A DNA stretch of 64,000 bases from a virus (taxonomy: Duplodnaviria; Caudoviricetes): IMG/VR virus record IMGVR_UViG_3300031519_000018, positions 7,511 to 71,510 of that record; one strand, given 5' to 3'. The notes below the pieces were generated by a model, which had not been told where the DNA came from, made no database searches, and saw nothing but the letters and a program-made list of their open reading frames with translations. A program made the position numbers and the translations under genes. This document shows, piece after piece, positions 25,217-53,861 of the stretch (position 1 is the stretch's first letter; every line of letters begins with the position of its first letter).

Positions 25217-26692
25217 TTATGATTTTTTCAATAATACGAAGTTGTTAGCAGCTTGTACACATAAACATCTTTCTGATAAGAAGTTTACAGTCATGCTATC
25301 TAAGTCAGAAGTATAACTTCCACCAACAGATCCTGTAATCCAAGATTTCATTTTTCTATCATCTGCTTCAGAAGCTCTGTAACGGATGTGTAAGAATGGT
25401 CTTGAGATATTTTTCCCCATTGATTGGTCATATACTGTTGAAGTACCAGCTGGTACAATAACACCTTCTACGTCAGCTATTAATCCACGAGTAGTAGCAT
25501 CGTTTAAATATTTCCAGTCAGACTTGTAGAAATCGTAAGATCCACGTCTAAATCCAGAGAAACCTAAATTTAAAGCCATATCCTCAGAGTTATCGAATAC
25601 ACCGTAAGATGTACCACCAGCTCCGTAAGAATTTTGATTAGCTAACATTTTGTCAATGCTTAAAGCAGTAGATCTATCTAAGAACATCATATTCTCTTCG
25701 ATAGCTCCTTGCTTGTCAAGCTCTTGTAGAATAGCATCAAACTCATCAATTCCACCACCAATACAAGTATTAGCGAATCCTTGATTGTTATATACTAATC
25801 CTCTTGATTCAATAGCAGCAAATAATCCTTCAGATCCAGAAAAAGTAGCAGCTAAACCAGATGCAGCAACAGCTTTTTCAGCTTCAATCATTGCCATTTC
25901 TAATTTATCTTCAAATCTAATTCTAGTTTCACTTTCAGATTTTAAATACCAAAGGTACCCAGAAGCACCAGCTTCAGTAGCAACTTCAACCCATCCAATT
26001 TGTGCAGTATCAGATCCACTAATTTCATACTTACCTTTTAATATAATAGGTTTGTTATCAAATTTAGTGAATGGAGAATCTACAGATTGTTGAGACGCGT
26101 TGTCTGTTCCTTTTCCGTATTCAGAACCAAAGATAAATAGTTTTAGATCTGCTCCGCCAGCTGCAGAAGCAGTAAATCCAGCGTCATTAGCACCACCTAG
26201 TGCAATACCAGCAAAATCGTAAGCAGATACTACTAAAGTAACAGTTCCAGCAGGTTTGCTTTGTACTCTTGCTTTTACAGTTAAATTTCCTTGAGAAACA
26301 ACTAAAGTGTCACCTACAGAGTATAACGCCCATTGTTGAGCAGCACTTAATCCGTCTCCGTTTCCAACGGGATCAGCTACTAATGTAATTGTATCAGTTG
26401 TTGCAGTTGTGTTTGCAATTGTAGCGTTGTTAGATGCTACGTGAATTCTACCTTGTTCAGACCAAACTACTTGATCAGAAGCCATTGGCATTTCAGCACC
26501 AACCATTCTTAAGAAACCAGAGATAGTACGGTTACCGTATCTTTCTACTTCTTTCTCGTAAACTTCTGGTAAGAATTGCTTAGCAAAGTTAAAATCATTA
26601 TCAGCAATTGACAAATAGTTATTGTCAAATGCAAGTTTGTTTGGGCGAGGTACCACGTGTGATAACTCAGCGCCAGTTCCAGCTAAAGCCAT
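25217..26692 (-). CDS. Major capsid protein
   Basis: 491 aa after portal and scaffold; EQGR and HK97-type C-terminal SERCLCVQAANNF; strong codon bias. Confidence 0.8.
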   Translation of the reverse strand: MALAGTGAELSHVVPRPNKLAFDNNYLSIADNDFNFAKQFLPEVYEKEVERYGNRTISGFLRMVGAEMPMASDQVVWSEQGRIHVASNNATIANTTATTDTITLVADPVGNGDGLSAAQQWALYSVGDTLVVSQGNLTVKARVQSKPAGTVTLVVSAYDFAGIALGGANDAGFTASAAGGADLKLFIFGSEYGKGTDNASQQSVDSPFTKFDNKPIILKGKYEISGSDTAQIGWVEVATEAGASGYLWYLKSESETRIRFEDKLEMAMIEAEKAVAASGLAATFSGSEGLFAAIESRGLVYNNQGFANTCIGGGIDEFDAILQELDKQGAIEENMMFLDRSTALSIDKMLANQNSYGAGGTSYGVFDNSEDMALNLGFSGFRRGSYDFYKSDWKYLNDATTRGLIADVEGVIVPAGTSTVYDQSMGKNISRPFLHIRYRASEADDRKMKSWITGSVGGSYTSDLDSMTVNFLSERCLCVQAANNFVLLKKS

Positions 26693-26717
26693 AATTTTTA
26701 ATTTTTAGTTTTATTAA

Positions 26718-27866
26718 TTATTTATTTTTTTTGAAACCCCACTTAAAAGATGAACCATCTGCATCAACGGCTCTGTAAGTAGTACCTGATTTAGGTGCTT
26801 CTCCTTGAGCTTTTCTAGGATCCATACTAATGTTTTTTGTTTGAGAAATACTCTGTCTCATAGCATCAGACTTTCCTTGTTCGTAGAAATGGTTTGCAAT
26901 TGCATCGGGATTCATTGCGGTGAATAAAGATTTGTGATAACCAGCGGCGTCGCTCATCTCATTGTTTTTGTCAAGAAACTTCTTAACAAAATTATTGATG
27001 TTGCCCTGTGCATCTTTAACTTCATTCGGGTTTTTAACATTAAACCTATACCTTTTGTCTCCGACTTTATATTCAAAACCTTTGAATTCGTCATTAAAAA
27101 CTTGGTTAGTTTTATTGTTGAAAGTTTGAGTTTGCTTTTCAGCAACCTCTTGATTTTTATTATATCTATTAAAAAAATCTACAGCTTTTTTTTGCTCAGG
27201 CGCTAACCTAGAGCCAGCTTTGATTTCTTCATAATATTTATCTTTTAAGCTATTAAGATGATTTTTAGCATATGCTAACTCTTCTTTTCTAGCTAATTTT
27301 TTTCTTTTAATATCTCTTTCATCTTCCATGTCTTCTTCAATAGCAAATTTATCTTCTATTAAAAAGTTTATTTCCGATGGATCTAAATGAGGTCTTGTGT
27401 TTTGATAGTACTCAACTAGTAATTGCTCTTCATTTAAAGCGTCTACGTCTTGATTAAGTTTGACGTAATCTTCTAAACTTCCACCAGTCTCATCCATAAA
27501 GTCTACAACTTTTTGAATGTTTTCTGGTAAAGGTTTTCCAGTTTCTTGAGCTTCAACAACTGCTTCAGCAATTTCTTCAGCTTTTTCTATAACCTCTTCT
27601 TCTGTTATCTCTTCAAGAACAGTTAGCTCTTCAGGCAAAACTTCTTCTTCAACAACAGCTACAGGTTCTTCAACCTTTACTTCTTTTTTAACTTCTTCAG
27701 CAACTTTGCCTTTTTCTGGCTTAGTTACTAATTTGTCAAAATCTATTTTATGTGTACCATCTTCTTTGACAGTAACTTCAGGTACTAGATCACCTTTTTC
27801 AGTCTCTTGGGCCTGCGGAGTTATTTCTTCCACTACCTCTTCGACTATTTTTTCTTCTTTAGCCAT
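26718..27866 (-). CDS. Scaffolding protein
   Basis: Very acidic helical protein between portal and MCP. Confidence 0.7.
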   Translation of the reverse strand: MAKEEKIVEEVVEEITPQAQETEKGDLVPEVTVKEDGTHKIDFDKLVTKPEKGKVAEEVKKEVKVEEPVAVVEEEVLPEELTVLEEITEEEVIEKAEEIAEAVVEAQETGKPLPENIQKVVDFMDETGGSLEDYVKLNQDVDALNEEQLLVEYYQNTRPHLDPSEINFLIEDKFAIEEDMEDERDIKRKKLARKEELAYAKNHLNSLKDKYYEEIKAGSRLAPEQKKAVDFFNRYNKNQEVAEKQTQTFNNKTNQVFNDEFKGFEYKVGDKRYRFNVKNPNEVKDAQGNINNFVKKFLDKNNEMSDAAGYHKSLFTAMNPDAIANHFYEQGKSDAMRQSISQTKNISMDPRKAQGEAPKSGTTYRAVDADGSSFKWGFKKNK

Positions 27867-27895
27867 AATAAAATATTATAAAATTATAAAATTAA

Positions 27896-30319
27896 TTACA
27901 TAGGTCCAAACGAACCTAGGTTAAAACCATTCATGTTGTCATTACCCGAAGACTCAAAGTCTTTTGGCGATGAATCGTTTTTTCTTTGATCTATCAACTC
28001 GCTTTGTTGAGTTGCTTGTATTTTTGTTCTTTCGTCTTTACGATCTTCTTTGTAAGCTTCGTCGTTTTTCTTAGTCTTAACTTCAGCTTCTTTTAATTGC
28101 ATATTAAACTGAAATTCTAAGGTCATTAACTCTTTTTTCAATAACGCTTCTTGTTGCATTTGTTGAGATTTCATTTGACCTTTCATCTGCTCCATTTGAG
28201 ATTGTATCTGAAATAAAGCTTGGGATTTTTGAACCTCAGCTTGAGCAGCAACTTGTTGAGCTTGAGCGTTAGCCTGAGCCTGAGCTTGCATATTCTCTTG
28301 CTGTATTTCTTGATCTCTGTCTTGCTTTTTCTTTCTTCGTTGCTTTAATAGTTGATTTGCTAGCTTTATGTTTTTAATCTCTCTAAGATCTATAGCATCT
28401 TCTAGATCTATCAAACCACCAGCTACAGCCGCTTGTATGTTATTTTCTAACATACCTTTTTCCTCGTCATCAGGCGTGAGTTCTATAAATATTCCAAAGT
28501 CATGCAAGTATAAGTTAGATATATCTTCTAATATACCTACGTTTTGATTACCTATTTTATTTATAAAAGCTTCTCTTGTTGGAGAAAACTCTAATATATC
28601 TGATATTCTAAGAGATAAGTTTTCAGCTAACTCTTGAGTTAACGCTAAACCAGAATTTAATATGTGTCTAGTAGCTGTGTTTGAATTAGCAGCGGCTAAT
28701 TTTTGAACACCAACTAGAGCTCGTGCATCTGGACTACTACCATCTCTAGCTTCATTTAAACCAGTCACATCCCTTATCATTTGCATGTAGTAGTTGTAGT
28801 TGGTTATTAAAGTTTGTATTTTTTGACCACCAGATCCTGATTGTATTTCTTGAATAGGTACTTTACCCGGATTCATATCTCCCTCAGAAGTAAAAGACCT
28901 ACCTATTATAGATCCCGTCTGAAAGAACATATTTAATGCTTCTTGTGGATTATAATTAGTTCCATTACCTAAATCAACCTCAGCTAAGCCGTCAGCGTCT
29001 AAATAAACACCATCTGGCACCATTCTAGACATAACTTGCTGTAGCTTTAAGTGAGTTAACTGTATCATGTCAGCAAAACCAGTACAGCGCTTTACTAATG
29101 AATCAATCCTTCCTTTGTACATTCTAGGAGCATTAATAGCGTAGTTCATTTTAACCTTACTATAATCACTCTTAGGTCTCATCATGTTTTTAGCTAACTC
29201 CCACTTAAGTAAATGATTTGTTCCTAAAATTAAACAACCTTCATATAAAACTTCTAATGACCTTGATATTTTACCAAAGTTTCCTGTCATTTCGTTTATA
29301 GGTGGATCGAATGTATCGTCTCTTAGTATTATTTTTTCCGCACCAGTTGAAGTTTCTTTAACTTTGTAAACCTCGTTCATGTAGGTTTTGTAGTTAAAAT
29401 ATAAAACTTGAATCTGGTTTTTATCGTCGTAGTAAGAAGAGTTGTATCTATTACTAGAGTAACTGTTCTGATGTATGCTTTGACTTTGTATAGATTTTAA
29501 ATCCTCATCAGTTAAATTAGGAAATTCTTTTTTAAGTTCGTTTATAGGTATTGTTTTTATTTCACCTACGTAATATATATCTTGAAAGTCTGGATCCTCT
29601 GTATAAGAGTAAACTATATTAGCTGGATCAACGTACTCAACCTTAACGCCTTCTGACTTTGTAAAAGTATTTTTAACGCAACCTATACCTATCGTAGTTA
29701 AATCGTAATTTATTCTTTTTTTAACAAGATCATACCTGTTGCCTTTAAGCAAAACGTTTATAGCTTGTTCTTCTGCTAGCTCTATACCTTGCTTGTAGCT
29801 TAATTTCATATGAAGGTCTAGCTCTTCTTTAGAGTTTGGAAGCATTTCTGGGGGTGATTCAAACAATGAAATACCAAAAGCTTCTTGAGCAAACATATTT
29901 AAGTCCTTAGTCTCCATGTCTCTCAATATAGACTCCATGTACTTTGTTCTCTTGTCAACACCATAAGGGTCTTGAGAATAACATTTTATGTCAAATGATC
30001 TTTCTGATATACCATTAACCACTATATCCACAAACTTAGGTATTACAGGTACTGGTTTCCAATCTAAGTTTAAGTAGCTTAAGTCACCGTTTACAGATAA
30101 TTCATCTTTATACTTTTGAATAGGTTGTTCACCTCTAGCGTATAGTCTTAGCTTATGAAACTCAGCTTGATGCTGATTATATCTTTGATTAGACGTAGAT
30201 CCATCAAACCACTCATACTCAATGGCTTTACCTACTTGTAATCCATACTTAGCGCTTAACTTCTCTGCGTCAGGTACAACTTGACTCGGAAAATAACCTT
30301 TTACAACTGACTCAGCCAT
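27896..30319 (-). CDS. Portal protein
   Basis: 807 aa after TerL; LDWKPVPVIPKFVDIVVNG, C-terminal Gln-rich coiled coil. Confidence 0.8.
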   Translation of the reverse strand: MAESVVKGYFPSQVVPDAEKLSAKYGLQVGKAIEYEWFDGSTSNQRYNQHQAEFHKLRLYARGEQPIQKYKDELSVNGDLSYLNLDWKPVPVIPKFVDIVVNGISERSFDIKCYSQDPYGVDKRTKYMESILRDMETKDLNMFAQEAFGISLFESPPEMLPNSKEELDLHMKLSYKQGIELAEEQAINVLLKGNRYDLVKKRINYDLTTIGIGCVKNTFTKSEGVKVEYVDPANIVYSYTEDPDFQDIYYVGEIKTIPINELKKEFPNLTDEDLKSIQSQSIHQNSYSSNRYNSSYYDDKNQIQVLYFNYKTYMNEVYKVKETSTGAEKIILRDDTFDPPINEMTGNFGKISRSLEVLYEGCLILGTNHLLKWELAKNMMRPKSDYSKVKMNYAINAPRMYKGRIDSLVKRCTGFADMIQLTHLKLQQVMSRMVPDGVYLDADGLAEVDLGNGTNYNPQEALNMFFQTGSIIGRSFTSEGDMNPGKVPIQEIQSGSGGQKIQTLITNYNYYMQMIRDVTGLNEARDGSSPDARALVGVQKLAAANSNTATRHILNSGLALTQELAENLSLRISDILEFSPTREAFINKIGNQNVGILEDISNLYLHDFGIFIELTPDDEEKGMLENNIQAAVAGGLIDLEDAIDLREIKNIKLANQLLKQRRKKKQDRDQEIQQENMQAQAQANAQAQQVAAQAEVQKSQALFQIQSQMEQMKGQMKSQQMQQEALLKKELMTLEFQFNMQLKEAEVKTKKNDEAYKEDRKDERTKIQATQQSELIDQRKNDSSPKDFESSGNDNMNGFNLGSFGPM

Positions 30320-47754: not shown

Positions 47755-48295
47755 TAAAAAAAAATGTAACATAATTAGAGGTATAGCGTTGCCCCTACCT
47801 CTCACGACACACCGCGATTTTGGAAAGTCAATCCTCTCAACCCAGCCCCTATAGTCTCCTCGTTTCACCATAGACATACCCCCTTCAGTGTATAGCATCT
47901 TACCTTACCTTGTCACACCACACTTTCTTTTTCCCCATACATTCCACATATTACCCTGGCCTACCCACCCCACCACCTCACTACCTCATCATGTGATCAT
48001 ATCATTGTCCCATGTTATGTGATCATGTGTCTCATCGTCTCATGTTATGTTATGATCTTATTACATTCTTATTATCCACATTACATCGTACTACTTATGT
48101 ATGTACACACCTCACTACCCTGTGTATAGCACCACCCCCTCCCCCCTCCCTACCTCACTATGACATCTTGTCACTACCACATATGACTGATTGTCATGAC
48201 ATTACGACATATGACATCTTGTCACGACTATGACACATTGACACATGGTACAATACTATTTTACTAATTTCTATTACTAAACAATTATACTACCT

Positions 48296-48327
48296 TTACA
48301 ATACTAATACGAGTTTAAACAGATAAT
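48296..48327 (+). promoter_or_regulatory. Early promoter-like motif copy 1 (WTACAA-N4-AATACGA-N9-GATAAT)
   Basis: One of 7 equally spaced copies. Confidence 0.7.
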
Positions 48328-48533
48328 AATAACGTAACCAATTAAAACTTTATATTATCAAAATAACTACAAACAAATATCAAATTAAAAAAACTATTAA
48401 TATTCTAACTAATAATCATTATAATATTAAATCTTTAAACAATAAAATAATTATATTATCTCAATATCAATTAAATAATATAACTAAATTATTAAATACT
48501 AATTATATAAAATATAAAATAACTCAATAAATA

Positions 48534-48565
48534 TTACAAAACTAATACGATCTGTTTCAGATAAT
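48534..48565 (+). promoter_or_regulatory. Early promoter-like motif copy 2
   Basis: TTACAAAACTAATACGATCTGTTTCAGATAAT. Confidence 0.7.
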
Positions 48566-48612
48566 ATATATGTAATCAACTAATAAATAATAATAACTTA
48601 AATAAATAAACT

Positions 48613-48840
48613 ATGTCAAAATTAAATTCAAAAAGATTCGTAATCAGAAAATCTTTAATCGGTAAAAATCAAATTATTACTGTCAACTTCAAAAACGGTA
48701 AAACAGTTACTTATAATCACGATAAAGTGTATGAAGTAATGAAGTCTAAACTCGACACAATGAATTGTTTCATCAAGTATAAATCATATACTTCTTCTAC
48801 TTCAGTTCCTGTATCTGTCAGAGATTTAATGGAAGTATAA
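48613..48840 (+). CDS. First early gene, hypothetical
   Basis: ORF with AAATAAACTATG leader. Confidence 0.7.
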   Translation: MSKLNSKRFVIRKSLIGKNQIITVNFKNGKTVTYNHDKVYEVMKSKLDTMNCFIKYKSYTSSTSVPVSVRDLMEV

Positions 48841-48899
48841 TATACTTTCAAAATGGTGACTCACCGAACCAGATTAATACACAAACTGGTGAGATCTTA

Positions 48900-49017
48900 G
48901 GAGTGAATGGGTCGGTAGTAAATCGTAACGTACTTAATATAGATGGAAAACTCTATAACGTTAGTAGATAAATCGTGTACGTGTATGACAAAGGTTCAAT
49001 TCCTTTCCACTCCACTA
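48900..49017 (+). ncRNA. tmRNA/tRNA-like RNA, 115 nt (acceptor stem + T-arm + P2-like helix)
   Basis: GGAGTG/CACTCC-A acceptor, GAC-AAAGG-TTCAATT-CCTTT T-arm, ACGTAC/GTACGT helix. Confidence 0.55.
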
Positions 49018-49044
49018 ATAATAATAATAAAATAAAACTAAACT

Positions 49045-49194
49045 ATGAGAAAATTTCATCACAACAAAGTATTAAATATACTTACAGGAGTAGTAGTATA
49101 CTCTTCAGTCACACTAATAATAACTTGTTCACTAATGATATTGTTTAATCTTTTTGTAAACGGTGCTCCAACTTCCTTCGGAATATACGGGTAA
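49045..49194 (+). CDS. Small membrane protein (49 aa)
   Basis: Hand translation; long hydrophobic stretch. Confidence 0.6.
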   Translation: MRKFHHNKVLNILTGVVVYSSVTLIITCSLMILFNLFVNGAPTSFGIYG

Positions 49195-49225
49195 TACAAA
49201 ATAAATACGACTCAATATCGATAAT
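49194..49225 (+). promoter_or_regulatory. Early promoter-like motif copy 3
   Basis: ATACAAAATAAATACGACTCAATATCGATAAT. Confidence 0.7.
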
Positions 49226-49240
49226 ATAATAAAACAAACT

Positions 49241-49363
49241 ATGAAAAATCTAATTAATCAAATCAAATCTCAATTTCCATTCAATCCAGAATCCGACTGT
49301 CGAGAAAAATATAACGAATTCATAATGGATTATTTATATGAAGAAATAATAATAAACCTATAA
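49241..49363 (+). CDS. Small early protein (40 aa)
   Basis: Hand translation MKNLINQIKSQFPF...; AACTATG leader. Confidence 0.5.
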   Translation: MKNLINQIKSQFPFNPESDCREKYNEFIMDYLYEEIIINL

Positions 49364-49367
49364 TAAT

Positions 49368-49502
49368 ATGAAATATACACTAACCTGTGATAACGGTAAA
49401 GAAATCGATATGACTTCTTACATAATCCAACAATCAGAAAACAAAATAACTAGACAAGATGTTCTTAACAGAATAGAGTTCTATAAATCAACTAATAAAT
49501 AA
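49368..49502 (+). CDS. Small early protein (44 aa)
   Basis: MKYTLTCDNGKEIDMT... Confidence 0.55.
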   Translation: MKYTLTCDNGKEIDMTSYIIQQSENKITRQDVLNRIEFYKSTNK

Positions 49503-49521
49503 CTAATAAAAATAAATAACT

Positions 49522-49641
49522 ATGTCAACATTCTCATACACACTACTAAAAATCTCGTGGAATCTCTACGACAAACATTACACTAAATTAACTGAAGAAC
49601 AAAAATCTAAAGTAATGAGTATTTACTATGACTTTTACTAA
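49522..49641 (+). CDS. Small early protein (39 aa)
   Basis: MSTFSYTLLKISW...; AACTATG leader. Confidence 0.55.
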   Translation: MSTFSYTLLKISWNLYDKHYTKLTEEQKSKVMSIYYDFY

Positions 49642-49651
49642 AATAAATACT

Positions 49652-49849
49652 ATGAAATATAAAGATTATCCTCAAGAACAGATCGACGCGAAACTTAAAC
49701 AAGTCGAAGAGTTCGAGTTAAAATTCGGTGTAAAACCAGTAAGTAAATCATGGAGAAAATGGTGTACTGATACTAAATACAGACAAAACGAGTGGAAATT
49801 CAGACAGAATATTGCAAACAGTGTTCAACCTAATGTAGATTACAGATGA
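49652..49849 (+). CDS. Early hypothetical protein (start re-called at MKYKDY)
   Basis: ORF track; leader. Confidence 0.6.
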   Translation: MKYKDYPQEQIDAKLKQVEEFELKFGVKPVSKSWRKWCTDTKYRQNEWKFRQNIANSVQPNVDYR

Positions 49850-49958
49850 GAAAACATTCACACAAAGTATTATTTAAGATCACCAACAAACAAGTTGAAG
49901 CAATCGAGAGACAATACTGGGCAAAATATAACAATGATACATTAGAATCTATGTTATT

Positions 49959-49990
49959 TTACAAACAAAATACGAATCAATAACGATAAT
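49959..49990 (+). promoter_or_regulatory. Early promoter-like motif copy 4
   Basis: TTACAAACAAAATACGAATCAATAACGATAAT. Confidence 0.7.
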
Positions 49991-50001
49991 ATAATAAAAC
50001 T

Positions 50002-50202
50002 ATGAACGCAATTAAATTTATTAACAAATCAACTATTAAATTAAACAATATAACTTACAAAGGTTATCCAATCGGCGAGCTACCTAAAAGGTTTGCTTTT
50101 ATTTACAATGCAGATACTGAACAAGAAGGTATCACTGAGTGGTTCAATTACAAAGGTCTTACTTATGTAGAACACACGCCTTCATTCTGGTCTTATGTCT
50201 AG
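50002..50202 (+). CDS. Early hypothetical protein
   Basis: ORF track. Confidence 0.65.
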   Translation: MNAIKFINKSTIKLNNITYKGYPIGELPKRFAFIYNADTEQEGITEWFNYKGLTYVEHTPSFWSYV

Positions 50203-50452
50203 TCCGAGTAATATGAAGGAGCTTCTTAACTATGCTGAAGCTCAGAAAAAAATCAGAGCAGACGGGCATAGACGTCTAACTCTCCTCAACGGATCGTGCA
50301 GTGGACTCACTGACAAAGAGTACAACAAAGTTGTAACAGGTCAGAAATCTAGTTTCGCGAAGGCTAGAAAGTTCACTCACAACCGTATGTGGCAAGAAAC
50401 TCACAAGAAGTTTGACATTAAAGAATTAAAACTAATAAAACAAACACTATGA
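50195..50452 (+). CDS. Early hypothetical protein
   Basis: ORF track, overlapping start/stop. Confidence 0.6.
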   Translation: MSSPSNMKELLNYAEAQKKIRADGHRRLTLLNGSCSGLTDKEYNKVVTGQKSSFAKARKFTHNRMWQETHKKFDIKELKLIKQTL

Positions 50453-50580
50453 AAATAGAATTAACAGAAAACGATTGTACTTTTGTACACTATGTACTAC
50501 GTATGTACGCTAACCAAACACCTGGTTTAGACCAAGAAGACAAAGATGAAATACGTGAAGTCGCGGCTAAATTTAAATAA
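50449..50580 (+). CDS. Small early protein (43 aa)
   Basis: MKIELTENDCTFVHYVLRMY... Confidence 0.55.
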   Translation: MKIELTENDCTFVHYVLRMYANQTPGLDQEDKDEIREVAAKFK

Positions 50581-50581
50581 T

Positions 50582-50782
50582 ATGACAGAAAAAATAAAAG
50601 ACTTCGTAGAACACGAATTAAAGATGTTAGATCGTGGTATCGTAGCTACACCTAAAGAAGAGGTATTAGATATGTTTGCACAAGCAAACCATGGAACAAA
50701 TGACTTCTTACTAATGCAAATGGCAAAAAACTATGGCTATAAATTAGCTTTATTAAACATGAAAGACAGATTTTATGAGTAA
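50582..50782 (+). CDS. Early hypothetical protein (start re-called at MTEKIK)
   Basis: ORF track. Confidence 0.6.
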   Translation: MTEKIKDFVEHELKMLDRGIVATPKEEVLDMFAQANHGTNDFLLMQMAKNYGYKLALLNMKDRFYE

Positions 50783-50951
50783 AATGAAAGAACTAGATCT
50801 TATAGCACAAGGCGTTGCGGATCACGTGAAAGAAATAATAGAAGATACTGTAGATTGGCAATTAGCTGATGTGGAATTAAGCGGTGATAGATATTTAGAA
50901 ATGAAAGAATACGTAATAAACGTAGCGTTAAACAAATTATTACAAACATAA
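50775..50951 (+). CDS. Small acidic early protein (58 aa)
   Basis: MSKMKELDLIAQGVADHV... Confidence 0.55.
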   Translation: MSKMKELDLIAQGVADHVKEIIEDTVDWQLADVELSGDRYLEMKEYVINVALNKLLQT

Positions 50952-50971
50952 TACGATTGAATTCAGATAAT
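50940..50971 (+). promoter_or_regulatory. Early promoter-like motif copy 5
   Basis: TTACAAACATAATACGATTGAATTCAGATAAT. Confidence 0.7.
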
Positions 50972-50998
50972 ATAAATGTAACAAATAAATAATAAACT

Positions 50999-51187
50999 AT
51001 GTATTGTAGATGTGGAAGTAATGTGCACGAAGTGCGAATCAAATTAGGTTATAAAACCTGTATGCCTTGTAGTACAACACAGACATATTCTTATGTGCCT
51101 ATTATCGAGCACAAAACAGGTAATACAATACAAATCGTCAGTCAAGAAGTAAGTGCATCAGTGCATAGAGCTTGGCGGCGTAAATAA
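50999..51187 (+). CDS. Small C4 zinc-finger protein
   Basis: CRC...CMPC. Confidence 0.6.
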   Translation: MYCRCGSNVHEVRIKLGYKTCMPCSTTQTYSYVPIIEHKTGNTIQIVSQEVSASVHRAWRRK

Positions 51188-51405
51188 GTCCTAACAAACC
51201 AGCAAGACCAAAAAAGACTCTTGCAAAGGATTAGGCAGGTAGCTAGACGAGTAGCTTAATTAGATGAGTTTGAAGCTAACCATGAAAAATAGGTTAGATG
51301 ATGGATTCTCATACATAAGTGAATTGCTAGTAGCTAGATGACGAGGCAGGAGGGCAATCGCGACGATAAATTCTGCGGTTGTTTTCAGAGGCCGATTCTA
51401 GCGGC

Positions 51406-51474
51406 AACTAGGTATGGGTGCTCCGACCGGGCGTGCTACTGACGAGTATGAGGGTTCGATTCCCTCGCTAGTTA
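51406..51474 (+). ncRNA. Degenerate tRNA-like element
   Basis: AACTAG/CTAGTT acceptor-like stem; GAGGG-TTCGATT-CCCTC T-arm; non-canonical D and anticodon arms. Confidence 0.4.
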
Positions 51475-51542
51475 CAAATGTGCAGCGAATAAATAACGAC
51501 GAGCCTTAACCAACAGGATCAAGCGAGCATGACTGCACACAC

Positions 51543-51623
51543 GGGGGTGACTTGGTATTGACGTGATAGAAAGCCTATATGGAACTATTGCGGAAGAGAG
51601 TTCGAATCTCTCCACCTCCACTA
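51543..51623 (+). ncRNA. Minimal tmRNA: tRNA-like domain only, no tag ORF or pseudoknots
   Basis: GGGGGTG/CACCTCC-A with G3-U70; unpaired D-loop ACTTGGTATTGA; 8-bp P2a; GAA; GAGAG-TTCGAAT-CTCTC. Confidence 0.8.
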
Positions 51624-51642
51624 AACTTAAAATAAAATAACT

Positions 51643-51792
51643 ATGAAAAATCTTTATGAACAATTAGATGAGTTAATAGATACTATTAAATACTCACACG
51701 CTGCAGGTAATGAAGATCCTGATTACTTAGACGATGAATACTTTGAAGACGTTATAGAAGCGTGCAAAGAAATTGTAGAGTATACAAAATAA
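51643..51792 (+). CDS. Small acidic protein (49 aa), N-terminus MKNLYEQL shared with next gene
   Basis: Hand translation. Confidence 0.55.
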   Translation: MKNLYEQLDELIDTIKYSHAAGNEDPDYLDDEYFEDVIEACKEIVEYTK

Positions 51793-51813
51793 ATACGAAT
51801 AAAAACCGATAAT
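51782..51813 (+). promoter_or_regulatory. Early promoter-like motif copy 6
   Basis: ATACAAAATAAATACGAATAAAAACCGATAAT. Confidence 0.7.
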
Positions 51814-51825
51814 ATAATAAAACAA

Positions 51826-52035
51826 ATGCAAAAATTAAATCTTTACGAACAACTAAAGCCTGAATACAAAACAAGTATCAGCGAAAACTTTAAAAACAGA
51901 AAACATTCACACGATGCTTTAATAAGAGCTCTCAGCGATGAGTACTACTTTACTGAAGTAAAATATGGTGACGCGTTTGATATTATGAATTCATGTGATC
52001 TAGATTTTCTAGGTGACGCATTTAACAAAAAATAA
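51826..52035 (+). CDS. Early hypothetical protein
   Basis: ORF track. Confidence 0.65.
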   Translation: MQKLNLYEQLKPEYKTSISENFKNRKHSHDALIRALSDEYYFTEVKYGDAFDIMNSCDLDFLGDAFNKK

Positions 52036-52037
52036 CT

Positions 52038-52469
52038 ATGACAAATTTACAAGAAGCAATTATGAACGAATACACAACTCCAAAAAACGACTGGAGACAA
52101 AGAAGAGTAGAATTAGTAGATTTATTTGCTAAAAGAATGTACGTTGAGTACAATATCAAAGAAATGACTACTGATAGACAAAAACAAAATGGCACAAGAC
52201 AATTTGTTTTACCTAATGGTGATCAACTAGCGTCTTACAAAACAGGCTATGTCAGAAGATGTAACTCAAGTGATAGAATATATCAACTAAACAAAATGTA
52301 TAAACGCGAAGAAAGATGGACTGTAATGACAGACGGTAAGCTAAGAACTATAAAATCTATATGTCATGCTAGAGAATTAATACATGATCCGCTTGCTAGA
52401 CTAGTATACATTATAGAATTCTGCAAAAGAAACTATGGAATGAGAAACTTAACACTATATGATTTTTAA
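52038..52469 (+). CDS. Early hypothetical protein
   Basis: ORF track. Confidence 0.65.
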   Translation: MTNLQEAIMNEYTTPKNDWRQRRVELVDLFAKRMYVEYNIKEMTTDRQKQNGTRQFVLPNGDQLASYKTGYVRRCNSSDRIYQLNKMYKREERWTVMTDGKLRTIKSICHARELIHDPLARLVYIIEFCKRNYGMRNLTLYDF

Positions 52470-52686
52470 TATGAGCAATTCAATAAGAAAATACAACGAA
52501 CTAGTAGAGTCTGGCGATATTATACCAGGACAAATGCCTCTTAAGCAAGATGATAAAATATATATTACAGCTTTAGAAAATAAATTACACGATATATCTT
52601 GGCGTTTACAAGAGTATTATGGTAATATGTCAGACAAAGACTACTTAATAAACAAAATAGATAATATAATAAATAAAGAATTATGA
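52459..52686 (+). CDS. Early hypothetical protein
   Basis: ORF track. Confidence 0.55.
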   Translation: MIFNMSNSIRKYNELVESGDIIPGQMPLKQDDKIYITALENKLHDISWRLQEYYGNMSDKDYLINKIDNIINKEL

Positions 52687-53045
52687 ACAAAGAAGAACTA
52701 GAAAAAAAAGTAAACGAGTTAGAAACAACACTAAACTCCGTAGAATTAAACGCTAAAGTATTAAAAGACGATTTAAAAGAAGCTAACAAAAAGCTAGCAA
52801 ACGTTAACAAGCCCGAGCTATATCCTTCTCAAGTCGATGAGATAAGAGAAGCTGTGCACCAAGCTTTGCAACAAATAAGCTTTGATGAAACAAGCTCTTA
52901 CAGCTATGACTTTGAAATCAATTACGATAATCAATTAGAACTATCTAACATAGAGTTTACTGACGTAGACGAGATCAACGAGACTGTGTGTGATTATATA
53001 GAAGATTGTTTTAATATTATACCTGCAGATGAAGATGAAAAATAA
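52683..53045 (+). CDS. Acidic coiled-coil early protein
   Basis: ORF track. Confidence 0.65.
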   Translation: MNKEELEKKVNELETTLNSVELNAKVLKDDLKEANKKLANVNKPELYPSQVDEIREAVHQALQQISFDETSSYSYDFEINYDNQLELSNIEFTDVDEINETVCDYIEDCFNIIPADEDEK

Positions 53046-53295
53046 ACAGACAATACCTAAATGGTTCAATGGCTCTGTATATGATAAAGGTGAAAAAGTT
53101 ACTAACCCTTTTAGTGGCGAATCTTACGATCTTAACAATATAGAGCTATCTTTGTATGACTTTATTATGGGTTGTAATCACGTGTTTGCTATTGGCTCTA
53201 ATAGAGTTAATGATGAAATGATAAAAGATTTTAATAAAGCATTAACTTGGTTTAGAACTAATAACACTAAAGCTTACATGGTATTACTTGATTAA
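53029..53295 (+). CDS. Early hypothetical protein
   Basis: ORF track. Confidence 0.65.
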   Translation: MKMKNKQTIPKWFNGSVYDKGEKVTNPFSGESYDLNNIELSLYDFIMGCNHVFAIGSNRVNDEMIKDFNKALTWFRTNNTKAYMVLLD

Positions 53296-53308
53296 TGCTA
53301 TACACATT

Positions 53309-53380
53309 TGCGCGGTAGAGCAGCGGTAGCTCGTTGGGTTCATATCCCAAAGGTCGGAGGTTCGAACCCTCCCTGCGCAC
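53309..53380 (+). tRNA. tRNA-Met(CAT), initiator-type
   Basis: Full cloverleaf; anticodon loop TTCATAT; GGG/CCC at end of anticodon stem and A11-U24 as in fMet tRNAs; CCA not encoded. Confidence 0.9.
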
Positions 53381-53399
53381 CTAAATTAAATAATAAATT

Positions 53400-53861
53400 A
53401 TGAGTACAAGAAGTTTAACAATGGTGGTAGATAGATCTGCCGCCGAAGACAACGAGCTAGGTTTTGCTTGCAACCCAAGTATACTTAGTGACAAAAGCTA
53501 TGTAAATATGTATTTACATCACGACGGTTATCCTGAATATCAAGGTGTACAATTAGCTAAATGGGCTGAATATATGCAAGAAGAGAAAGGTTTTAACAAC
53601 TTTGGCGATGGATCTAGAATAGCTTCACATTTAGCCTATGATTTTCATTACCCTAGTCAATACTTATATGCTGATGTAGGTGATATAGATCATGCTTATA
53701 CATATATACTATGGACAGGTAAATCTAATGTATGGATTAGCTGTTTTAGTCAATATAATAGTAAAAACATATTTGTTTTACCTATAAAAAAAGTAATAGA
53801 AAAGTACGCTGGTAAGTATATATATACTGACTGGGCTTACAAATCAAATACGAATCAATAA
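53400..53861 (+). CDS. Hypothetical protein (YLHHDGYP motif)
   Basis: ORF track. Confidence 0.7.
   Translation: MSTRSLTMVVDRSAAEDNELGFACNPSILSDKSYVNMYLHHDGYPEYQGVQLAKWAEYMQEEKGFNNFGDGSRIASHLAYDFHYPSQYLYADVGDIDHAYTYILWTGKSNVWISCFSQYNSKNIFVLPIKKVIEKYAGKYIYTDWAYKSNTNQ

Follow-up and report, generated by a model that had tools for sequence, protein, structure and literature searches.

A conserved tRNA top-half mimic and an upstream pseudoknot behind a phage early gene: a possible mRNA 3'-end processing module

Introduction

Between two early genes of a tailed phage lies a 115-nt stretch, here called E1, whose ends can pair as a tRNA acceptor stem around a T arm. A sequence-only reading of this DNA had seen in E1 a miniature tmRNA with an 8-codon tag frame, or else a second decoy, and had named stems that are conserved while the frame is not as the finding that would speak against the tag. 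The locus raises the question which RNA is encoded here and what it may serve for. To our knowledge, Bacteroidota do not rely on Shine-Dalgarno-driven initiation, and the formation of mRNA 3' ends in these bacteria is poorly understood. Partial tRNA structures are known from several processing systems. Hairpins consisting of an acceptor stem and a T-stem-loop are efficient RNase P substrates (PMC11143913). Plant mitochondrial t-elements direct cuts by RNase P and RNase Z at mRNA ends (Forner et al. 2007, PMC1920247). At the 3' end of MALAT1, RNase P cuts at a tRNA-like element while an upstream triple helix protects the transcript (PMC8457004).

Genome context and host

The locus belongs to a complete IMG/VR virus genome of 71.5 kb with direct terminal repeats. 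Bases 7511-71510 of this genome form the window, i.e. the whole stretch of 64,000 nucleotides that was analysed, and positions given without further indication are those of the window. Structural genes occupy the minus strand up to ~48000, where small early-type genes start on the plus strand. One structural protein shares 42-45% identity with proteins of Maribacter phage Panino, Flavobacterium elemo phages and Cellulophaga phages, which makes a marine member of the Flavobacteriia the probable host. A promoter-like motif, ATACG-N-GATAATAT, is repeated on the plus strand at 48308, 48546 and 49206, ahead of early genes.

E1 is intergenic and in sense orientation, with the ORFs on either side belonging to a single promoter-to-promoter unit. 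It lies behind the conserved early gene o48613 that encodes a 75-aa protein (Table 1). IMG/VR holds at least 362 relatives of o48613; 80 of these loci were fetched, and the 70 with ≥300 nt downstream of the gene were used for the synteny count. Seventeen residues are invariant among 34 aligned homologs. The protein was considered as a candidate RNA-binding partner when its AF2 model (pLDDT 91.7) was submitted to fold searches, and no Pfam, PHROG or PDB fold match was obtained (Foldseek E>1, VIA-align Z≤3.5, Atlas scores <0.8). An 8-bp hairpin, GGAAGUAU-AAU-AUACUUUC (48831-48849, plus strand), extends across the stop codon of o48613, and relatives have another hairpin at this site, AGUAGUU...AACUACU over TAG. 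Neither the region 48600-49400 (blastn) nor the 75-aa protein (tblastn) matched any of 50,697 phage records. The combination of E1 with U1, the pseudoknot upstream of it, is absent from the cultured phages of this collection and thus so far known from metagenomes only.

Table 1 Features of the E1 locus and other tRNA-like genes in the window
Feature	Position	Strand	Basis or remarks
o48613, conserved 75-aa early gene	48613-48840	+	RNA module directly 3' of it
U1, H-type pseudoknot, 6 nt upstream of E1	48854-48893	+	covariation
U1 S1, UGGU/ACCA	48854-48857 / 48868-48871	+	
U1 S2, CUCACC/GGUGAG	48860-48865 / 48888-48893	+	
U1 loop 3, A-rich	48872-48887	+	
Spacer AUCUUA, U1 to E1	48894-48899	+	RNase P cut predicted at 48899/48900 from tRNA geometry
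E1, tRNA-like element, 115 nt	48900-49014	+	sequence, covariation, synteny
E1 acceptor GGAGUG/CACUCC, 6 bp	48900-48905 / 49008-49013	+	includes A3-U70
E1 pair 7:66, A·C	48906 / 49007	+	sequence
E1 D-loop remnant AUGG	48907-48910	+	sequence
Lineage-specific inserted arm, long irregular hairpin	48911-48989	+	RNAalifold and pair counts
Arm helices	48911-48917/48984-48989; 48924-48930/48974-48981; 48931-48934/48963-48966; apical 48938-48943/48952-48957	+	
8-codon frame GGA AAA CUC UAU AAC GUU AGU AGA UAA	48945-48971	+	apical loop through 3' strands of the arm
E1 T arm AAAGG-UUCAAUU-CCUUU, 5 bp	48990-48994/49002-49006; loop 48995-49001	+	
E1 discriminator A	49014	+	
Trailer CUAA after the discriminator	49015-49018	+	RNase Z cut predicted after 49014
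Third tRNA-like gene, class B	51406-51474	+	acceptor AACUAG/CUAGUU, G·G at 7:66, UAUGGGUG linker, 37-nt insert, T arm GAGGG-UUCGAUU-CCCUC
TLD-only tmRNA mimic	51543-51623	+	RF00023 63.9 bits, TLD only, 304 model positions deleted; G3-U70
Phage tRNA-Met (CAU)	53309-53381	+	U1-A72; N73-CUAA trailer as in tRNA-like genes

E1 and its homologs

The tRNA features present in E1 are an acceptor stem, a T arm with the GTTCRANTC motif and a discriminator, and this acceptor/T-arm fold is embedded in a longer transcript. A cloverleaf D arm and an anticodon arm with a 7-nt loop are not found in E1, which has an apical loop of 8 nt on an arm of ~23 bp. ARAGORN did not call E1 and found the tRNA-Met only. 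With Rfam at gathering level, only this tRNA-Met and a tmRNA match at 51543-51623 were obtained. At E≤10, the sole relevant match in 48700-49200 was to RF00005; it had a 51-nt insertion and the acceptor in a shifted, wrong register, and with 20.6 bits it stayed below the gathering score of 29. The minimum-free-energy fold of the single E1 sequence was no better than those of shuffled sequences (z = -0.97) and missed the T arm. In the whole 71.5-kb genome the sequence GTTCRAWTC occurs at three sites only, all on the plus strand and in the early region.

Related phages were more informative. A scan of their loci for a T arm with an acceptor yielded 92 matches, compared to 2.4 in shuffles. In 50 of the 70 loci the 330 nt past o48613 contained a T arm of 5 perfect base pairs and a TTCRANT loop, and around each of these 50 T arms a 6-bp acceptor was found (reverse strand 0, shuffles 0.1). 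The elements downstream of o48613 are usually just 41-44 nt long, e.g. AGACAUA-AUGGUUAAU-GUGAG-UUCGAUU-CUCAC-C-AUGUCU-A-CUAA. In an alignment of 25 distinct members of this short type (minis), all 11 stem pairs were changed on both sides, with 104 compensatory cells; the 100% pairing of this alignment is partly due to the picking of the sequences, and the unbiased count is that of the survey, 50 of 70 loci. Neither the GG of the linker nor the T loop varies among the 25, and the acceptor sequence is hypervariable among homologs. At position 7:66 a pair is lacking in 25 of 30 minis, most of which have A·C there, so that the stack consists of 6 bp, one non-canonical layer and 5 bp and matches the 12-layer top half of a tRNA. 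Minis nearly always begin with A1-U72 or U1-A72, combined with G2-C71. The trailer is shared more widely, N73 plus CUAA following 61 of 77 distinct tRNA-like genes of the phage group as well as the true tRNA-Met. The CCACUA end, which the sequence-only reading had noted in both E1 and a 78-nt element (the TLD-only one), is thus a general trailer and does not link these two in particular.

We define class A elements by a 6-bp acceptor, an unpaired 7:66, an A[UC]GG linker, a 5-bp T arm with a UUCRAUU loop, and A73 followed by CUAA, in a position behind o48613. E1 has every one of these features and differs only by an inserted arm, which also occurs in L028, L044, L066, L077 and L113. An exact pattern made of the E1 T arm and 3' acceptor found no match in IMG/VR because the acceptor is too variable, and covariance model R1, built from 41-nt minis, missed E1 owing to its 75-nt insert. 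Applied to Maribacter phage Panino, R1 matched only the 3' halves of true tRNAs. Judged by covariation and synteny, E1 is a real, conserved, structured RNA that imitates a tRNA top half.

It was also considered that E1 might be the decaying, functionless relic of a former tRNA gene. In favour of this, Panino, a distant relative, encodes a tmRNA besides 19 true tRNAs, and a D-loop-like GUCGGUAG and UGGUU in the linker and arm can be seen as remnants. A relic, however, would hold neither 100% pairing through dozens of double substitutions in the two stems nor an invariant GG and T loop, and such an origin without function is very improbable. An attP site or integration relic was rejected, since the two strands of the acceptor covary, for which a partial tRNA copy would have no need. 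A role as terminator was rejected as well; no T-run follows E1 and a terminator scan finds none there. For annotators these results mean that an acceptor/T-arm element in a phage is not necessarily a tRNA, a tmRNA or an att site.

The inserted arm and the 8-codon frame

The distance between the GG linker and the T arm is 9-12 nt in most homologs, 40-44 nt in some and 45-72 nt in a variant with G3-U70. A distance of 83 nt, and with it the 75-nt insert, was found only in the window phage and one close sister lineage (L028, L044, L066, L077 (contig also L091) and L113). The arm was analysed in E1 and four sister sequences, for which RNAalifold folds it as one long hairpin that closes right before the T arm. 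Its pairing is 100% in these five sequences, and none of 500 shuffles was as good. Compensatory changes occur at four pairs, i.e. 48911:48989 (GC to CG), 48916:48985 (UA to CG), and 48927:48978 and 48928:48976 (both AU to GC), and 8 of the 11 substitutions in the insert fall in compensated pairs. UAGAUGR was rejected as a protein-binding motif common to E1 and 51260-51340, its enrichment on the coding strand being genome-wide (33 versus 17 expected) and thus not specific.

Much of what the sequence-only reading had described at the structural level stands. The acceptor stem, the T arm and a long helix closing beside the T arm were confirmed for a structured tRNA-like RNA gene, and the letters agree with A3-U70 and the A·C mismatch at the seventh pair. 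The UAUAGA/UCUAUA hairpin is present with the proposed resume codon in its loop, and the frame with UAG at -5 to -3 is there as letters. Of the tmRNA-style GAC, the trinucleotide itself does precede the T arm; in the sister lineage it is GAG, and it forms the 3' strand of a helix. The proposed P2 register, ACGUAC/GUACGU, could not be maintained, showing no compensatory change and one broken pair in four of the five sequences. It is replaced by the two helices 48924-48930/48974-48981 and 48911-48917/48984-48989, which hold the four compensatory pairs and are 100% paired.

A miniature tmRNA would enter stalled ribosomes and add GKLYNVSR to the nascent chain. This reading can draw on the open 8-codon frame with its UAG, retained in all five long forms, and on G3-U70 in one variant (L091/L077). 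However, the stems covary across more than 50 related phages while the frame and its UAG context are confined to the lineage-specific insert and missing from most homologs. The sequence-only reading had itself chosen stems kept and frame not kept as the observation that refutes a tag, and by this sequence criterion the tag is refuted. Among the five long forms the frame shows GGA>GAA, AAA>AGA, AAC>AGC, GUU>GCU and AGA>AGG, four non-synonymous changes to one synonymous change, while most substitutions of the insert compensate within helices. The resume region is base-paired, and no pseudoknot (PK1) ahead of the resume codon was found within E1. Alanine identity by G3-U70 is not present in E1 and occurs among the sister long forms in the L091/L077 variant only. 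The tmRNA model RF00023 had no match in 48700-49200 at E≤10, nor did ARAGORN find a tmRNA there. The 8-codon frame is judged from these sequence data as not translated, and a tagging function of E1 is extremely improbable.

A further syntenic variant of 77-104 nt, GGGUAAC...CUUAUCC with G3-U70, is found in L033 (3312-3415), L042 (3430-3533), L073 (3298-3401) and L041 (3249-3325). It has a D-arm-like UACA-UGGACAGUA-GUGUA and a long arm, and ARAGORN calls it neither tRNA nor tmRNA.

The pseudoknot upstream of E1

The H-type pseudoknot U1 is described by the motif GGUGACU-NNNC-GAACC...AACUG-NNNAG, in which NGGU pairs with ACCN (S1) and CUNNNC with GNNNAG (S2). In alignment A6, consisting of 11 sequences that were chosen by the motif alone and not by pairing, 99.1% of the cells are paired, compared to 25-43% in slid controls. 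Four pairs were changed on both sides, with 20 compensatory cells. U1 is coupled to the tRNA-like element, as a class A element follows 5-19 nt after it in 25 of 28 loci, second genomic copies included. A pattern scan over the whole of IMG/VR yielded 45 copies with a complementary S2, 37 of them followed by a T arm, and 19 chance matches, none of which has a T arm behind it.

No Rfam family matched U1 at E≤10. A hammerhead or known riboswitch was rejected for U1 on this ground and because the CUGAUGAG-like strand is the strand of a covarying helix (CUGGUGAG, CUGGGCAG). Copies of U1 without a tRNA-like element are L068 3303-3344, L071 3252-3295, L072 3303-3344, L133, L146, L150 and L184. In these copies a conserved AAUAAAUACAUGAGGUGGUGGCACUUGUCAUC... 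follows U1 instead of the tRNA-like element, and U1 can therefore work with another partner.

A possible processing module

The features conserved in the E1 family, i.e. shape, the elbow formed by GG and the T loop, the 12-layer stack, A73 and the trailer shared with a true tRNA, are those by which RNase P, RNase Z and the CCA-adding enzyme know their substrates. As the acceptor of the E1 family is hypervariable, recognition would be by shape, as with these enzymes. The placement at a gene end and the coupled pseudoknot match known designs and, together with the conserved features, have led us to read U1 and E1 as a cis-acting module for 3'-end formation and processing of the first early mRNA. 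Our confidence in this favoured reading is evenly balanced. According to it, U1, the 6-nt spacer and the acceptor/T-arm mimic would be transcribed within the first early operon, behind o48613. Host RNase P would cut at the predicted site in front of E1 and leave an upstream mRNA whose 3' end is capped by the pseudoknot, while a cut by RNase Z after the discriminator would release E1 and start the downstream message. The released E1 may receive CCA. The module would thus separate and stabilise the first early mRNA, with no tag being translated. Several observations count against a module of this kind. About 20 of the 70 relatives have no element at the o48613 site, many minis have no U1 ahead of them, and behind 8 of the 45 true U1 copies the T arm is missing.

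RNA data come from contigs of close relatives in four marine metatranscriptomes. These contigs are unitigs of related strains that carry no strand information and break at polymorphisms, and within 48000-53500 the parts without contig cover carry no information. E1 is covered by RNA contigs. In one run a strandless unitig of depth 57 extends from 48572 to 48905, where it ends, and the contigs following it have depths of 4-22. This unitig begins just past the promoter-like motif, ~26 nt behind the copy at 48546. In two other studies contigs reach as far as 49010, and one contig begins at 49012, these being unitig ends and no proof of termini. Two contigs bridge 48900 uncut, which counts against the module. 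Taken together, the contigs hint weakly that E1 is cut at its two ends and that the mRNA upstream of it is the more abundant.

The main rival of the processing module is a function in trans, in which the released, CCA-tailed RNA would titrate, as decoy or cofactor, a host factor that recognises the acceptor end or the elbow. Such a factor could be a host RNase, a defence nuclease that targets tRNAs or a toxin that modifies 3' ends. The conservation of the elbow (GG and T loop) and of A73, with the stem sequence left free, would suit such a mimic. With another tRNA-like gene and the TLD-only mimic of tmRNA, the phage also seems to invest in tRNA mimicry, and a phage anti-CRISPR protein makes use of fragmented t(m)RNAs (PMC11662646). 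A free-standing decoy, however, leaves the coupling to the 3' end of a gene and the upstream pseudoknot unexplained, and no partner protein was found, the 75-aa product of the neighbouring gene giving no fold match. The depth of RNA contigs over E1 is low, although small structured RNAs are under-sampled. As an explanation of the locus by itself, the trans-acting mimic is unlikely. A role in trans of the released RNA is compatible with processing in cis. Both can be combined, more tentatively than the processing module itself and as a somewhat stronger candidate than the mimic by itself. The pseudoknot and a top-half mimic of 41-115 nt would recruit RNase P and RNase Z for a protected 3' end, as a counterpart of the ENE-mascRNA in phages of marine Flavobacteriia, and the CCA-tailed mimic, enlarged by the arm in the present phage, would also act in trans on a host tRNA-binding factor.

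If the processing module works as proposed, tRNA-processing enzymes set the boundaries and the stability of mRNAs in early operons of Bacteroidota phages. A pseudoknot combined with a 41-nt tRNA mimic would then also be a portable 3'-end cassette for synthetic biology in Flavobacteriia.

Comparison with known systems

Plant mitochondrial t-elements resemble E1 in having non-canonical tRNA-like folds with a GGTTCRANYCC T loop inside mRNA precursors. Their ends coincide with 5' or 3' termini of mRNAs, and the elements are taken to be cis-acting signals for RNase P and RNase Z, whereas the ends of the phage element are predicted. The released form of a t-element can be stable and carry a non-encoded C or CCA (PMC1920247). 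The phage element is not organellar, has only 41 nt without D or anticodon arm in most members, and has a pseudoknot upstream.

U1 and E1 resemble the two-part design of MALAT1 and MEN-beta, in which a compact protective structure (ENE) lies immediately upstream of a tRNA-like element that RNase P cleaves to form the mature 3' end. The mascRNA is subsequently cut by RNase Z and CCA-tailed (PMC8457004). These, however, are eukaryotic nuclear lncRNAs, while the phage element would reside in an mRNA of a bacterial virus, and mascRNA is a near-complete cloverleaf. MALAT1 has a triple helix of U-rich and A-rich strands; U1 is an H-type pseudoknot with an A-rich loop, in which a triplex may form.

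Model substrates of RNase P (McClain, Guerrier-Takada and Altman; reviewed in PMC11143913), as far as the review describes them, have the minimal architecture of the 41-nt members, i.e. coaxial acceptor and T stems with a T loop, and are cleaved by bacterial RNase P at the canonical site. The model substrates of this account are synthetic and end in 3' RCCA, while the natural elements add the GG linker, the 7:66 mismatch and the CUAA trailer.

The TLD-only tmRNAs of mycobacteriophage DS6A and jakobid mitochondria, in which the tRNA-like part alone is kept (PMC4131195, PMC3590771), have the same topology as the long form of E1. In contrast to these, E1 has no G3-U70 and no match to the tmRNA model, and their true counterpart in the phage is the element at 51543-51623.

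Other tRNA-like genes of the phage group

The presence of this TLD-only element bears on the possibility that E1 is a second decoy of the SmpB/tmRNA system, a TLD-like RNA that would bind SmpB and dampen trans-translation in the same way. The long form is TLD-like in topology, with an acceptor, an unpaired GG loop and a helix closing beside the T arm, and inhibition of tmRNA is described for TLD-only molecules irrespective of whether they can be charged (Mao et al. 2009, as cited in PMC4131195). The P2-like helix, however, is absent from most family members, E1 has A3-U70, and RF00023 gives no match to it even at E≤10. Each phage, moreover, already has a separate, well-conserved TLD class with G3-U70. 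A second SmpB decoy is therefore improbable.

The TLD-only class is found in most relatives as GGG[GCA]GUG...CAC[CGU]UCC-A-CUAA, with a central hairpin of 38 to 89 nt; members are L034 5991-6111, L041 5170-5287, L004 4665-4771 and L018 5557-5663. The acceptor sequence of the class B gene also recurs, in L005 (3097-3230), L007 (1398-1485), L018 (5467-5552) and L084 (5298-5386), with inserts of 37-102 nt. The plus-strand region 51112-51500, upstream of the class B element, is ORF-free and GC-richer and has the highest contig depth (105 and 68, run X17). It had no Rfam match, contains internal segments that vary in relatives (joints 51263 to 51398/51467), and probably represents an abundant structured non-coding RNA. 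In Maribacter phage Panino (PP540027.1), 19 tRNAs and a tmRNA of 333 nt are annotated in 25461-28224 and 67168-67713, and the tmRNA annotation overlaps those of tRNA-Asp and tRNA-Thr.
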